A stretch of DNA of 44,680 nucleotides from a virus (taxonomy: Duplodnaviria; Heunggongvirae; Uroviricota; Caudoviricetes). Of this stretch, positions 5,967-40,700 are shown one piece after another. Numbering within the stretch: the first letter of the stretch is position 1; each line of letters starts with the position of its first letter. Both the position numbers and the translations under genes were made by a program. The DNA lies in the IMG/VR virus record IMGVR_UViG_2721755657_000002; one strand, given 5' to 3'. The notes beneath the pieces were generated by a model. That model did not search any database. It saw nothing but the letters and a program-made list of their open reading frames with translations, and was not told the DNA's origin.

Positions 5967-6374
5967 TTATCTTTTATTTGTCCGCTGACGGGCTTTTAGT
6001 AATTCTTCAAAGAGTTTATTGAAGTTTTTTACTCGAGCTCGCATTTCGGCGAGCTGGGTATCCTGTTCTGATTCTGGCAGTGCATTAAACAGCTCAAGGA
6101 GCTCTAGTTCTTTGGGGGATAAGGCAACTGGCTTCTCAACAGGTGGTGTTGGTTGCTTGTCTTCATCGCCAAATAGAATCCATGTTGGTGAGCATTGCAA
6201 TACTTTGCTGAGGGCAAAAAGGTTCTTCCCTGTAGGTTCACTATCATCCCGTTCCCATTGTGATACAGACACATGGGAGATTTTCAGGGCTTTAGCAAGA
6301 GACCTTTGGGTGTGTTTGAGGTTTTTCCGACGATACCTAATGCGTTCGCCGATAGTTAAATTTTTTGTTTCCAT
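5967..6374 (-). CDS. dicA: Repressor DicA (XRE/P22 C2-like HTH)
   Basis: 135-aa product with HTH ...QRSLAKALKISHVSVSQWERD...; divergent from dicC. Confidence 0.9.
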   Translation of the reverse strand: METKNLTIGERIRYRRKNLKHTQRSLAKALKISHVSVSQWERDDSEPTGKNLFALSKVLQCSPTWILFGDEDKQPTPPVEKPVALSPKELELLELFNALPESEQDTQLAEMRARVKNFNKLFEELLKARQRTNKR

Positions 6375-6376
6375 AG

Positions 6377-6443
6377 TTAGCTAATGCTAAATCGTATTGA
6401 CTATGTTTTTGTTAACATCTATTTTGTTAGTCATAACTAACAA
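6377..6443. promoter_or_regulatory. dicA/dicC divergent promoter-operator region
   Basis: Palindrome TTAGCTAATGCTAA (6377-6390) and perfect 20-bp palindrome TTGTTAGTCATAACTAACAA (6424-6443); TTGACT -35-like hexamer at about 6397. Confidence 0.6.
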
Positions 6444-6457
6444 TAAAGGTGTTTTAA

Positions 6458-6688
6458 ATGCTTAAAACTGACGCTCTTTTGTATTTCGGTTCAAAAACAA
6501 AACTTGCACAAGCAGCAGGTATTCGTTTGGCTTCGCTTTATAGCTGGAAAGGGGATTTAGTTCCCGAAGGTCGCGCGATGCGTCTACAGGAGGCATCTGG
6601 CGGGGAGCTTCAGTATGATCCCAAAGTTTATGATGAATATCGTAAGACGAAGCGGGCGGGGCGGTTGAACAATGAAAATCACTCCTGA
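6458..6688 (+). CDS. dicC: Cro-like regulator DicC
   Basis: 76-aa ORF divergent from dicA (MLKTDALLYFGSKTKLAQAAGIRLASLYSWKGD...). Confidence 0.85.
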   Translation: MLKTDALLYFGSKTKLAQAAGIRLASLYSWKGDLVPEGRAMRLQEASGGELQYDPKVYDEYRKTKRAGRLNNENHS

Positions 6689-7193
6689 ACAGGCTCGTGA
6701 GGCTCTGGATGCCTGGATATGTCGACCAGGAATGACACAGGAGCAGGCGACGATATTAATCACTGAAGCATTCTGGGCTTTGAAAGAGCGCCCGAACATC
6801 GATGTTCAGCGTGTCACAGATGAAGGTGGCGCGGTTGATCAGCGAGCGCTTGGCGTTAATCGAGTGAAGATATTCGAACGCTGGAAGGCTATCGACACCA
6901 GGGATAAGCGTGAAAAGTTCAGGGCGCTAGTGCCTGCGATTATGGAGGCTATCCGGATTAGTGATTTCAGGTTGTATCGTGAGATCAGTGATGGAAAAAG
7001 TATTACGTACATGATCGCCGGGTTAAATAAAGAATATGGCGATGTGGTGGAATCCGGACTGCTTTTTGCAGATCCTGCCGTTGTAGATCGTGAAACTGAC
7101 GAACTTATAGAAAAAGCAATTGCTTTCAAGCTTGCGTATCGACAGCAATACCAACAAAAAGCTGGATGGAATTATGAGTCTTCTTTTTGCTGA
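6672..7193 (+). CDS. Hypothetical early protein, possibly YdaT-like (CII-position protein)
   Basis: 173-aa ORF directly after the Cro-like gene; ...DKREKFRALVPAIMEAI... resembles the Rac YdaT region as remembered. Confidence 0.45.
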   Translation: MKITPEQAREALDAWICRPGMTQEQATILITEAFWALKERPNIDVQRVTDEGGAVDQRALGVNRVKIFERWKAIDTRDKREKFRALVPAIMEAIRISDFRLYREISDGKSITYMIAGLNKEYGDVVESGLLFADPAVVDRETDELIEKAIAFKLAYRQQYQQKAGWNYESSFC

Positions 7194-8139
7194 ACGCCCA
7201 CTGGTTATAAACACGCAGCTGGCAATGAAAATTGGCTTAAACGAAGCCATTGTTTTGCAACAACTGCACTACTGGTTGAGAGATACCAACTCCGGCATGG
7301 AATGTGATGGTGTTCGCTGGATTTATAACACAACGGAACAATGGCTGGAACAGTTCCCATTCTGGTCAGAGTCAACGTTAAAGCGCGCGTTTGCAAGTCT
7401 GAAAACGCTGGGGCTTTTGCGTTGTGAAAAGCTCAATAAATCAAAGCGCGATATGACCAATTTCTACACGATCAACTACGGGAGCGAGCTTTTAGATGGT
7501 GGCAAATTGAGCGAATCCATCGGTTTAAAATGCGCCGCTCCATCAGGTCAAAATGACACGATGGAAGAGGTCAAAATGAAACGCTCCATTGGTTCAAAAC
7601 GACTCAATGTCATCGGGTCAAAATGGCCTGATGATCTTACAGAGAATACAACAGAGATTACTACAGAGAATAAAAAGACTTCTCGTCCGGAAGCTTCGCA
7701 ACCGGACCCGCAGACGGTTGAACAGGATTTTTTAACCCGACACCCTGACGCGGTTGTGTTCAGTGCGAAAAAACGCCAGTGGGGCAGCCAGGAAGATTTG
7801 GCGTGTGCGCAGTGGATCTGGGGGCGAATCGTGAGTCTTTACGAGCAGGCCGCCAGCGATGATGGCGAGATTTCGCGACCGAAAGAACCCAACTGGACCG
7901 CATGGGCCAACGACGTGCGCACAATGCGGATGCTGGATGGCAGAACTCACAGACAAATTTGTGAAATGTTTGGTCGGGTGCAGCGGGATCCATTCTGGGT
8001 AAAAAATATCATGAGTCCGTCAAAGCTTCGCGAAAAATGGGATGAACTGGTTATCCGCCTGGGGCGTTCGTCTGTACAGCGTTGTGTGAATCATATTTCT
8101 GAGCCGGATACCGAAATTCCGCCGGGCTTCAGGGGGTAA
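7174..8139 (+). CDS. Replication initiation protein (phage replisome-organiser N-terminal HTH domain; lambda O-like role)
   Basis: N-terminus ...LAMKIGLNEAIVLQQLHYWL... typical of the replisome-organiser N domain; iteron array lies inside the gene. Confidence 0.7.
   Translation: MSLLFAERPLVINTQLAMKIGLNEAIVLQQLHYWLRDTNSGMECDGVRWIYNTTEQWLEQFPFWSESTLKRAFASLKTLGLLRCEKLNKSKRDMTNFYTINYGSELLDGGKLSESIGLKCAAPSGQNDTMEEVKMKRSIGSKRLNVIGSKWPDDLTENTTEITTENKKTSRPEASQPDPQTVEQDFLTRHPDAVVFSAKKRQWGSQEDLACAQWIWGRIVSLYEQAASDDGEISRPKEPNWTAWANDVRTMRMLDGRTHRQICEMFGRVQRDPFWVKNIMSPSKLREKWDELVIRLGRSSVQRCVNHISEPDTEIPPGFRG
7521..7690. repeat. Putative replication origin: 4-5 iterons GGTCAAAATG at about 23-bp spacing, then an A-rich tract
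   Basis: ggtttaaaatg (7521), ggtcaaaatg (7546), ggtcaaaatg (7569), ggttcaaaacg (7591), ggtcaaaatg (7616); followed by acagagaatacaacagagattactacagagaataaaaag. Confidence 0.55.
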
Positions 8140-8179
8140 GTGTTAATTTCTGGTCATGAGGTAATTTTCAGGAGGGCTT

Positions 8180-37705: not shown

Positions 37706-40700
37706 ATGGCAGTAAAGATTTCAGGTGTACTGAAAGACGGCACAGGAAAACCGGTACAGAACTGCACAATCCAGCTGAAAGCAAAACGTAACAGCACCAC
37801 GGTGGTGGTGAACACGCTGGCCTCAGAAAATCCGGATGAAGCCGGGCGTTACAGCATGGACGTTGAGTACGGTCAGTACAGCGTTATTCTGTTGGTGGAA
37901 GGATTCCCGCCGTCACATGCCGGGACCATCACCGTGTATGAAGATTCCCGACCCGGTACGCTGAATGATTTTCTCGGTGCCATGACGGAGGATGATGCCC
38001 GTCCGGAGGCTCTGCGCCGTTTTGAACTGATGGTGGAAGAGGTGGCGCGTAACGCGTCCGCGGTGGCACAGAACACGGCAGCCGCGAAGAAGTCAGCCAG
38101 TGATGCCGGCACATCTGCCCGTGAGGCGGCAACCCATGCGACTGATGCTGCAGGCTCAGCGCGTGCAGCCAGCACGTCAGCCGGACAGGCCGCGACTTCG
38201 GCTCAGGAGGCGTCTTCCAGCGCAGGAACGGCATCAACAAAGGCCACTGAAGCATCAAAAAGTGCTGCCGCTGCAGAGTCCTCAAAAAGCGCGGCGGCCA
38301 CCAGTGCCGGTGCGGCGAAAACGTCAGAAACGAATGCTGCAGCGTCACAAAAATCAGCAGCCACTTCTGCATCCACTGCGACGACGAAAGCGTCAGAAGC
38401 CGCCACTTCAGCCAGAGATGCGGCGGCCTCCAAAGAGGCGGCAAAATCATCAGAAACGAACGCCTCCACAAGCGCCAGCAGTGCAGCCTCCTCGGCAACG
38501 GCGGCAGGAAATTCCGTGAAGGCGGCAAAAACGTCCGAGACGAATGCCAGGTCTTCTGAAACGGCAGCGGAACAGAGCGCCTCAGCTGCGGCAGACTCTG
38601 AGACAGCAGCTGCATCATCGGCCCGTGAGGCGTCCATTAAGGCAGAGGAGGCAGCAGTCAGTGCCACCGCCGCCGGAAAATCGGCAGAAAGCGCCGCATC
38701 GTCTGCTTCAACAGCCACAACGAAGGCTGGCGAAGCCACTGAACAGGCCAGCGCAGCAGCGAGGTCTGCTTCCGCAGCGAAGACATCCGAAACGAACGCG
38801 AAAGCGTCGGAAACCAGCGCAGAATCCTCAAAAACGGCTGCCGCATCGTCAGCCAGTTCGGCGGCGTCATCGGCATCATCGGCGTCTGCTTCAAAAGATG
38901 AGGCGACCAGACAAGCGTCAGCAGCGAAGAGCAGCGCCACGACGGCATCCACGAAGGCGACAGAGGCTGCTGGCAGTGCGGCAGCGGCAGCACAGAGCAA
39001 AAGTACGGCGGAATCCGCGGCAACGCGCGCCGAGACAGCAGCAAAACGGGCAGAGGATATTGCATCCGCCGTGGCGCTTGAGGATGCGAGCACGACGAAA
39101 AAGGGGATAGTACAGCTCAGCAGTGCGACCAACAGCACTTCCGAGTCACAGGCGGCAACGCCAAAAGCCGTTAAGGCCGCGTATGACCTGGCTAACGGGA
39201 AATACACCGCACAGGATGCAACGACAGCACAGAAAGGGATAGTTCAGCTCAGCAGTGCGACCAACAGCACTTCCGAGTCACAGGCGGCAACGGCAAAAGC
39301 CGTTAAGGCCGCGTATGACCTGGCTAACGGGAAATACACCGCACAGGATGCAACGACAGCACAGAAAGGGATAGTTCAGCTCAGCAGTGCGACTAACAGC
39401 ATTTCCGAGTCACAGGCGGCAACGCCAAAAGCCGTTAAGGCCGCGTATGACCTGGCTAACGGGAAATACACCGCACAGGACGCTACGACAGCACAAAAAG
39501 GAATTGTCCAGCTCAGTAGTGCAACCAACAGCACATCTGAAACGCTTGCTGCGACACCGAAAGCAGTGAAAGCAGCTAATGACAATGCGAATGGTCGGGT
39601 ACCTTCTGCCCGTAAGGTGAATGGTAAGGCGCTTTCAGCGGATATAACACTGACGCCGAAAGATATTGGTACGCTTAACTCAACAACAATGTCATTCAGC
39701 GGTGGTGCTGGTTGGTTCAAATTAGCAACGGTAACCATGCCACAGGCGAGTTCTGTTGTTTCAATTACGTTGATTGGTGGCGCTGGATTTAACGTGGGGT
39801 CACCTCAACAGGCAGGTATATCTGAACTTGTTTTACGTGCAGGTAATGGTAATCCGAAGGGGATTACTGGTGCTTTATGGCAGCGCACATCGACAGGGTT
39901 TACAAATTTTGCCTGGGTCAATACATCTGGTGATACTTACGATATTTACGTTGCAATCGGAAATTATGCGACTGGTGTAAATATTCAATGGGATTATACC
40001 AGTAATGCCAGCGTGACGATTCATACGTCACCAGCATATTCTGCTAATAAGCCGGAAGGGTTAACGGACGGTACAGTTTATTCACTCTATACGCCATCAG
40101 AGCAGTTTTATCCGCCTGGCGCACCAATCCCGTGGCCATCAGATACCGTTCCGTCTGGCTATGCCCTAATGCAGGGGCAGACTTTTGACAAATCTGCATA
40201 CCCGAAACTTGCAGCCGCTTATCCGTCAGGCGTGATCCCTGATATGCGTGGCTGGACGATTAAGGGCAAACCTGCCAGTGGTCGGGCCGTATTGTCTCAG
40301 GAACAGGACGGCATTAAATCGCATACCCACAGCGCCAGCGCATCCAGTACGGATTTGGGGACGAAAACCACATCGTCGTTTGATTACGGCACTAAATCCA
40401 CGAATAACACTGGTGCGCATACCCATAGTTTAAGTGGCAGCACGAATGCAGCTGGTAATCACAGCCATAGAGATGGCCGTCGATTTAACCCCAGTGTTTT
40501 TAAAGATACTTATCAATATGGTTATACAAGCTCAGGTCAAAATACCTGGGGTGTACAAGGCTCAGTAGGTATGTCTACGGGGTGGTTAGCGAATACCAGT
40601 ACAGATGGTAATCATAGCCATTCACTGTCCGGCACAGCAGCATCTGCAGGTGCACACGCGCATACTGTCGGTATTGGTGCTCATACGCACTCCGTTGCGA

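Follow-up and report, generated by a model that had tools for sequence, protein, structure and literature searches.

How does a prophage that carries a replication initiator gene and no gene for a helicase loader start its own replication, and where? The question is posed by IMG/VR virus record IMGVR_UViG_2721755657_000002, a 44,680-nucleotide stretch of Caudoviricetes DNA (the window, meaning the whole stretch that was analysed), which represents a lambdoid prophage occupying the Qin site of E. coli and extends from its integrase end across dicB, dicA and dicC to the late genes. Its initiator gene (7174..8139, plus strand; 966 nt, 321 aa) matches phrog_391, 'replication initiation O-like', at 4.5e-95 and contains an array of iterons followed by an A-rich tract. 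An earlier note on the same DNA, made from the letters alone, had placed a putative origin in these repeats, as in lambda, and had suspected that the replication module is incomplete. The analysis described here leads to the view that the segment is most probably the vegetative origin of an mEp460-like lambdoid prophage at the Qin site, set within the linker codons of its own initiator gene, and that it would operate by the mechanism proposed below.

Anatomy and constraint of the repeats in the initiator gene

The repeat search recovered five in-register copies of the iteron with start-to-start spacings of 23, 23, 23 and 24 bp, in good agreement with the four to five copies at about 23-bp phasing described in the earlier note; three copies are exact and two are degenerate. 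The exact core, GGTCAAAATG, occurs at 7546, 7569 and 7616 and has no other copy in the 44.7-kb window (three observed against 0.16 expected, with 0 of 100 shuffles reaching three), and the longer CATCAGGTCAAAATGAC finds four matches at up to three mismatches where 0.12 would be expected. Read directly, the complete repeat unit forms a 25-bp dyad with imperfect symmetry, CCATCnnGTCA-AAA-TGACnnGATGG. Iteron 1 (7516..7540) is degenerate, with core GGTTTAAAATG at 7522, and in most close relatives its position is occupied by a perfect CATCAGGTCAAAATG; iteron 4 (7585..7609), recovered like iteron 1 by the repeat search, is degenerate with core GGTTCAAAACG at 7591. The remaining copies were found by both repeat and motif searches and have exact cores: iteron 2 (7540..7564) is the best dyad, CCATCAGGTCAAAATGACACGATGG, iteron 3 lies at 7563..7587, and iteron 5 (7610..7634) is the reverse complement of iteron 2. 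Motif searches for the core and the longer iteron found no second iteron cluster in the window. Outside the array, one exact ACAGAGAATAC at 13660-13670 and an iteron-like 17-mer with three mismatches at 38016-38032, both on the minus strand, are probably chance matches. An inverted iteron-like sequence, CAGGATTTTTTAACCCGA, lies beyond the A-rich tract at 7723-7740 and is 78% complementary to iteron 5; it overlaps the conserved EQDFLTRHP codons, which are also present in relatives with other iterons, and is probably coincidental.

Directly after the array lies the A-rich tract (7636..7676), the proposed unwinding element, in which the repeat search identified three ACAGAGAWTAC 12-mers at 7638-7675 with 12-bp spacing, the same ACAGAGA(A/T)TA repeats that had been pointed out earlier. 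The 12-mer is present five times in the window at no more than one mismatch, against 0.46 expected, and three of the five are in the tract. At 70% A+T, with A making up 48% of its top strand, the tract has the lowest duplex stability of any 41-bp stretch in the gene (nearest-neighbour free energy of -45.6 against a gene mean of -56.7, standard deviation 3.9). Its right flank, AAAAAGACTTCTCGTCCGGAAGCTTCG (7672..7698), includes by direct reading the 8-bp palindrome GAAGCTTC and is kept in the Qin-like sister prophage L115, in Bacillus phage BtCS33 and in Klebsiella ST147phi7.2. In gene coordinates the iterons occupy nucleotides 331-460 and the A-rich tract 461-510, followed by the palindrome; in lambda, an A/T-rich tract and a palindrome likewise come after the four iterons, which are at O nucleotides 349-435. 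The proposal of an origin in the initiator gene that mirrors lambda is supported by these positions, by the A/T-rich tract and by the conservation of the repeats, and the description as a lambda-like ori inside O holds because the initiator's C-terminal domain is homologous to that of lambda O.

Constraint on the DNA itself is evident from the coding frame. The three exact cores are read in three reading frames (G-Q-N, V-K-M and S-K-W). Among 56 distinct versions of the gene in IMG/VR, third-codon positions vary at 57 of 110 sites in the N-domain and 98 of 152 in the C-terminal part, against 11 of 43 in the iterons and 2 of 17 in the 12-mer tract, where the constraint is strongest. Over 7504-7683 as a whole, 13 of 60 third positions vary compared with 155 of 262 outside this interval (Fisher p=1.3e-7), and variability at the repeats is about three- to five-fold below that of the flanking coding sequence; the synonymous sites of the origin are under purifying selection across the 56 variants. 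The three frames, the synonymous constraint, the co-variation with the N-domain and the conservation across phyla together indicate that the repeats function as a DNA element and not as a protein repeat.

The co-variation was observed in a set of 60 distinct N-domain homologues from IMG/VR, on contigs with a G+C content of 32-53%. All 60 carry iterons at gene nucleotides ~310-450; 34 have at least two copies of the GGTCAAAATG core, and the others have a different recognition-helix motif and different cores with position and phase unchanged. In a homologue with ~50% N-domain identity (L090), the predicted recognition helix reads TGKTIQR versus SESTLKR in the window, and the iterons are GGACAATTTGTCC. 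Another N-domain is found in PhiR29_2, Klebsiella phage P7641 and LLS, together with 15-bp GTCAAAATCTGAC repeats at the equivalent gene position; the C-domain of PhiR29_2 and P7641 is as in the window. Distant C-domain homologues from other species have a mid-gene array of their own in 13 of 15 cases scanned, with three to seven copies mostly at a 21-24 bp phase (15 bp in two). Close to the window, origin identity is 98.6% in mEp460 and 97-98% in the PhiR42_1 and HannyBb phage records. Much further away, the matching part of the initiator gene in Staphylococcus phage fPfSau02 shares 84% nucleotide identity with 7518-7579; this initiator has a 51% identical N-domain, and its gene contains GGTCAAAATG in three copies spaced by 22-23 bp. 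Conservation of the repeats in related prophages, which the earlier note had made a test of its proposal, is therefore found together with synonymous constraint and co-variation with the DNA-binding domain.

The 12-mers extend this pattern. They lie downstream of the iterons, at no more than two mismatches, in 58 of the 60 distant N-domain homologue genes, and in BtCS33, whose N-domain and iterons differ from those of the window and whose C-domain is O-type, they retain ~90% nucleotide identity over ~50 nt. Together with AAAAAGACTTCT(C/T)GTC they are nearly base-identical across E. coli, Klebsiella, Bacillus and Staphylococcus phages (L122:2490-2560; L124-L203), where they are paired with varying N-domains, iterons and C-domains, yet stay in a constant reading frame. 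What is conserved is a specific sequence, beyond plain A/T-richness. On its T-rich strand the tract has a CTG, the start triplet of E. coli primase, every 12 nt; that the 12-mer sequence is kept for primase starts is speculation. With iteron core and 12-mers near-identical in Staphylococcus, Bacillus and E. coli phages, an origin-initiator cassette is able to retain its DNA specificity across phyla, and the initiator group as a whole consists of exchangeable parts: an N-domain with matching iterons, the 12-mer tract, a C-domain and a tail.

The protein encoded around these repeats is built accordingly of separable domains in its AlphaFold2 model (mean predicted local distance difference test, pLDDT, of 56): a winged-helix-like N-domain (~10-100), an unstructured region (86-175), a helical C-domain (183-296) and a disordered tail. 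The unstructured region coincides exactly with the iteron and 12-mer codons, which at the modest confidence of the model agrees with the linker-coding location given in the earlier note. The N-domain codons (7174..7476) encode the part that is shared with fPfSau02 and whose helix motif co-varies with the iteron core; the best Foldseek matches of this domain, to 4pql, 4pt7 and 5kbj, are weak (E 0.017-0.06, template-modelling score 0.5-0.56; N-domain pLDDT 59-75). All three are N-domain structures of plasmid initiators or Rep proteins, which we take to be of the RepA_N type (pSK41 / pTZ2162). The codons for the C-domain (7720..8061) specify a helical domain (pLDDT ~70-85) that over residues 183-294 is 39% identical to the lambda O C-terminal domain (E 6e-18); the fold search, run on the full-length model with its low confidence, returned no match for it. 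The initiator thus appears to be a chimera of a putative iteron binder of DnaD/RepA_N-like kind and a lambda-O C-domain, since its N-domain is not Phage_rep_O and weakly resembles plasmid Rep folds, and its C-domain is a lambda-O homologue.

Annotation has largely passed this protein by. Pfam offers no family for it, the RepA_N, DnaD_N, PF04492 and PF17948 models being without a match (E<=0.01 in the case of PF04492), and in the same library lambda O and Gifsy-2 O match PF04492 at 1e-30 to 1e-36; Pfam holds no model for this N-domain or for the lambda-O C-terminal domain. The sole NCBIfam match is to positions 158-179 of the 179-residue DnaT model, at 17 bits against a cut-off of 201. Members of the gene family are labelled 'hypothetical protein' by PGAP, 'Primosomal protein I' by RAST, and 'DNA replication protein O' or 'transcriptional regulator' elsewhere. 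The RAST label is a misnomer that stems from the 21-residue tail, because the N-domain and DNA-binding domain of DnaT are absent. At E<=1e-5 there are 4317 homologues, and the best 120 of the 4317 are all 'hypothetical protein' or unnamed. A widespread E. coli prophage gene therefore goes unrecognised by PGAP and Pfam.

A module without a loader and an initiator with a DnaT-like tail

No similarity to DnaC, YdaV, lambda P or the P of L115 was found anywhere in the window (with tblastn for both P proteins), and the window contains no P-, DnaC- or DnaB-like gene and no other replication gene. The only clear Walker-A open reading frame (ORF) corresponds in position to the terminase large-subunit gene of the matching chromosome record; the loader calls rest on BLAST because the Walker-A regular expression misses DnaC-type P-loops (GKN). 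The earlier observation that no DnaC/P-like gene follows the initiator accordingly extends to the whole window. What does follow is a 140-aa ORF (8180..8602, plus strand), which had been considered as a possible loader fragment. It is a full-length DUF977/Ren-like gene of the YdaW family (PF06163, 1.5e-28, residues 1-135 against profile positions 1-133 of 134; phrog_142 at 2e-44) that among reference proteins matches lambda Ren alone. This full-length match and the lack of DnaC, YdaV or P similarity rule out a loader fragment, as does gene order: the DUF977 gene follows a true loader in Rac (ydaU-ydaV-ydaW), in L115 (O-P-DUF977) and in the related prophage L328.

The loader-less order cI-cro-YdaT-initiator-DUF977 is identical in phage mEp460, whose initiator protein is 96% identical, and mEp460 is one of 26 phages with confirmed lytic and lysogenic cycles (bioRxiv 10.1101/2022.06.30.498228). 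According to PMC12315714 (Genome Res 2025), 34 of 314 lambdoid phages have an O homologue alone, without helicase or loader, by a mechanism called not understood; the same paper counts LLS, laboratory-grown on E. coli K-12, among these O-only phages. The O protein of LLS ends in ..IPEGFRG, and the module of the window, with an O homologue and no phage helicase or loader, is of this O-only kind. 'Incomplete' is hence the wrong term, because the loader-less order is that of a viable phage and O-only modules are a recognised type; the absence of a loader is a natural design, recognised and unexplained. One part of the suspicion keeps its footing, in that L328 carries a DnaC-like gene after the initiator. 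Because the L328 initiator is near-identical to that of the window, a loader encoded by the phage is optional for this initiator. The genes after loader-less, tail-bearing initiators vary (DUF977, PerC/YfdN, DUF1064, methyltransferase), and with no consistent downstream gene there is no candidate for a hidden alternative loader.

The tail offers a possible answer to how the helicase arrives. Its codons and the stop codon lie at 8071..8139 (plus strand), and the last 21 residues of the initiator, VQRCVNHISEPDTEIPPGFRG, correspond to the very end of host DnaT (residues 158-179; peptide ..VNxVSEPDxxIPPGFRG). Rac YdaU, whose DUF1376 body is otherwise unrelated, has a matching C-terminus too, so that the tail motif can be written ..PDxxIPxGFRG or, in its longer form, R-D-V-N-x-I-S-x-P-D-x-x-I-P-x-G-F-R-G-COOH. 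In the host dnaT precedes dnaC, and in Rac ydaU precedes the DnaC-like ydaV. Among O-C-domain homologues, tail type goes with the gene that follows: W-rich tails of the ..WxxxL type (..GGHWNSxEAWENTL, ..GDWNSADGWEDVL and lambda's own) have a P gene next in 8 of 8 cases examined, and ..GFRG tails in none. L115 is 80% identical to the window in DNA from the repressor gene to 8063 (residue ~297, the end of the C-domain), beyond which its tail is P-type and P and DUF977 genes follow. In L328 the initiator gene is 94.9% nucleotide-identical over its whole length including the tail, homology to the window ends at the stop codon, and a DnaC-like gene (81% identical to YdaV) begins 6 nt downstream.

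Searching IMG/VR with the pattern P-D-x-x-[IV]-P-x-G-F-R-G-stop gave at least 120 loci, all at ORF ends, and 116 ORFs of at least 120 aa. Among the matches listed, the gene next to these 116 tail-bearing ORFs is DnaC-like in 65, not a loader in 39 and beyond the contig end in 12, with a P- or DnaB-like gene in 0 of the 104 assessable loci. The long form is present in 40 of 50,697 phage records, from Escherichia, Shigella, Salmonella and Klebsiella phages only. Tails occur on at least four classifiable bodies, namely O-type, YdaU type (Rac, Gifsy-2, SPN3UB), Phg_2220_C (LLS, ST147phi7.2) and the DnaT DNA-binding domain (SPN1S), and on at least two unclassified ones (Tritos and 75/02 Stx). The SPN1S initiator (L208:1748-2563, Salmonella phage) is a phage N-domain fused to a complete DnaT DNA-binding domain (PF17948 at 3.9e-18, 65% identical to DnaT) and the tail, and no loader gene is next to it. 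The comparison with Rac ydaU-ydaV and Qin-like prophages that had been suggested earlier has in this way found a DnaC-like gene in Rac (ydaV) and L328, P in L115 and no loader in mEp460. That phages acquired the tail recently from the dnaT gene of the host was considered and rejected, the nucleotide identity being ~55% (54 of 99 columns with dnaT; 50 of 90 with ydaU). The full-text literature searched, including work on DnaT structure, a DnaC variant and reviews, is silent on what the extreme C-terminus of DnaT does and on phage initiators with this tail, and the available portion of PMC12315714 does not mention it.

Since the tail adjoins DnaC-family genes and, among the matches listed, never P or phage DnaB, a loader is the favoured partner, and this gene neighbourhood suggests that the tail would recruit a DnaC-family loader, here the DnaC of the host. 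Perhaps, as a tentative generalisation, the ~20-residue peptide of DnaT, YdaU and many enterobacterial phage initiators is a portable motif on which loaders of the DnaC family (DnaB6-DnaC6) dock. By analogy with lambda and the iteron plasmids, dimers of the N-terminal winged helix would bind the five phased dyad iterons to form an O-some-like complex which, aided by pR transcription and supercoiling, would open the adjacent A-rich tract of three 12-mers, where the replicative helicase DnaB would then be loaded. Loading would have to use the host DnaB-DnaC complex, because the prophage encodes neither P nor DnaC, and the initiator may dock that complex through its C-terminal DnaT-like peptide, which would act as an adaptor for loaders of the DnaC family.

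Weighing the alternatives

Several observations weigh against the interpretation of the segment as a working origin with a DnaC-docking initiator. Iteron 1 is slightly degenerate in the window's own copy, the A+T content of the tract is merely 70%, and the 12-mers always stand in one reading frame, T-E-x-T, such that some constraint may act at the peptide level. In several E. coli genomes the initiator is a 290-aa protein (P0016, P0018-P0022) with an in-frame deletion of 31 aa (93 bp) in the region equivalent to 7516-7609, as expected for recombination between iterons; because four of the five iterons are gone, the origin of these copies is probably dead with the protein intact, and some E. 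coli genome copies are therefore probably no longer functional. The classical in-frame ori-minus deletions of lambda are similar. It is scarcely credible, nonetheless, that the repeats are the by-product of a low-complexity protein linker without any DNA function: the predicted disorder of the encoded linker and the constant T-E-x-T frame would suit such a view, but one 10-mer is read in three frames, third-codon variability drops three- to five-fold relative to the flanks, nucleotide identity to Firmicute phages is 84-90% where protein identity is ~50% or lower, and the iteron sequence follows the recognition helix, not the linker. A mainly regulatory array (autoregulation, copy-number control by handcuffing, or incompatibility), with initiation elsewhere in the prophage, is very unlikely. 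Plasmid iterons do serve both initiation and regulation, but the window holds no second iteron cluster and no further replication gene, and the array adjoins a conserved unwinding-type tract just as it does in lambda.

The origin could also be intact in sequence within a module that is a dead remnant, its P or dnaC-like loader lost. The DnaC-like gene of L328, the lambda-P gene of L115, the degenerate iteron 1 and the four-iteron deletion variants are all compatible with such a loss, which is still judged unlikely given that the identical loader-less order is present in viable mEp460 and in the PhiR42_1 and HannyBb records, that LLS, SPN1S, Tritos and PhiR29_2 are further loader-less phages with the DnaT-like tail, that synonymous sites of the origin are under purifying selection in 56 variants, and that the O-only type accounts for 34 of 314 lambdoid phages in PMC12315714. 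The role of the tail is the least secure part of the interpretation. Neighbourhood counts are inflated by related prophages, and the loci without a loader may include defective prophages. According to PMC11087952 (JBC 2024), no contact of DnaC with PriA, PriB or DnaT has been demonstrated, and a 2026 preprimosome structure suggests that the N-terminal domain of DnaT, not its C-terminus, may recruit DnaB/DnaC (PMC13377028); on account of both papers the tail-DnaC idea is unproven and has a serious rival. That rival, itself somewhat doubtful and still a substantial possibility, is that the tail binds PriA or PriB and thereby draws the restart primosome to the opened origin, or binds DnaB or single-stranded DNA, or mediates oligomerisation, and does not contact DnaC. 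It would accommodate the docking of the DnaT C-terminal domain to PriA via conserved hydrophobic residues, reported with the proposed N-domain recruiter in PMC13377028, and the SPN1S initiator, in which the whole DnaT DNA-binding domain accompanies the tail. Less easily accommodated are the fact that scaffolds of at least four unrelated kinds (DnaT, YdaU type, O type and 75/02 type) bear the tail directly 5' of a DnaC-family gene and the count of 0 of 104 for P or a phage DnaB helicase among the matches listed.

The docking of host DnaB-DnaC by the tail, if true, would have consequences beyond this prophage. The tail type predicts the helicase-loading partner that follows, a rule that was not found described in the literature searched, and phages would graft this docking motif onto unrelated origin-binding scaffolds, with a phage dnaC paralogue dispensable. 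It would explain helicase loading in O-only lambdoid phages, a question left open in PMC12315714, and would indicate which part of DnaT recruits DnaB/DnaC in replication restart, a question open in PMC11087952 and PMC13377028.

Gene neighbourhood and comparison with known systems

The 2.3 kb at 6400-8700 are 100% identical to several E. coli chromosomes. Upstream of the initiator gene, the cI-like repressor gene (5967-6374, minus strand) is followed by a Cro/DicC gene and a YdaT/cII-like gene, the latter overlapping the initiator gene by 20 nt. In some E. coli records, 448-aa proteins (P0002-P0004) join a YdaT-like domain (PF06254) to the initiator, which may be a frameshift or gene-calling artefact. 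Downstream of the DUF977 gene lies an FRG-domain gene (8840-10174, minus strand), and the same place is held by a 1350-nt gene in mEp460 and a 1335-nt gene in Tritos, where the initiator body is different; judged by position alone and not by homology, it looks like a moron or accessory cassette that moves with the DUF977 gene. In L115, the P-carrying sister prophage, a DNA polymerase III theta-like gene (PF06440; L115:6936-7193) lies 3' of the replication module. The tail-tip gene J is frameshifted in record NZ_LR778153, and the late region of the window is not collinear with it at the predicted coordinates.

Compared with lambda O/ori, the window shares an origin at the equivalent relative position within the initiator gene, four or five dyad iterons ~20-24 bp apart that each contain an A-tract (TCAAAA), an A/T-rich tract and palindrome on the right, promoter-distal side, and a pR-operon location behind cro and a cII-like gene, with a Ren-like gene downstream. 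The systems differ in that the initiator N-domain is not PF04492 (Phage_rep_O), the module lacks a P gene, a DnaT-like tail stands in place of lambda O's own, and three specific 12-mers compose the unwinding tract, which has a lower A/T content. The O-only lambdoid module of LLS is alike in its lone initiator gene without helicase or loader, its mid-gene iterons and its ..IPEGFRG end, and different in its HTH_36 N-domain, Phg_2220_C C-domain and 15-bp iterons. The modules of Rac (ydaU-ydaV-ydaW), Gifsy and Stx 75/02 have a Cro-like gene upstream (followed in Rac by a YdaT gene), initiators that end in ..PDxxIPxGFRG and a DUF977 gene (ydaW) downstream; unlike the window they encode a DnaC paralogue of their own, 48-51% identical to DnaC, and the body of YdaU is DUF1376 and not O-type.

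The RepA_N plasmid initiators and Firmicute DnaD-like organisers resemble the window initiator in iterons central to their own gene and perhaps in a winged-helix N-domain of similar fold (a weak match), and the Staphylococcus phage homologues do so in a 51% identical N-domain and an identical iteron core, whereas their C-terminal halves are DnaD-type and their partners are of the DnaD/DnaB/DnaI type or phage helicases. Host DnaT has the last ~21 residues in common with the initiator, 17 of them identical, and differs by its N-domain and DNA-binding domain (PF17948), both of which the window initiator lacks. The origin arrangement itself is of the textbook kind, and the element of the window is a variant member of that family.

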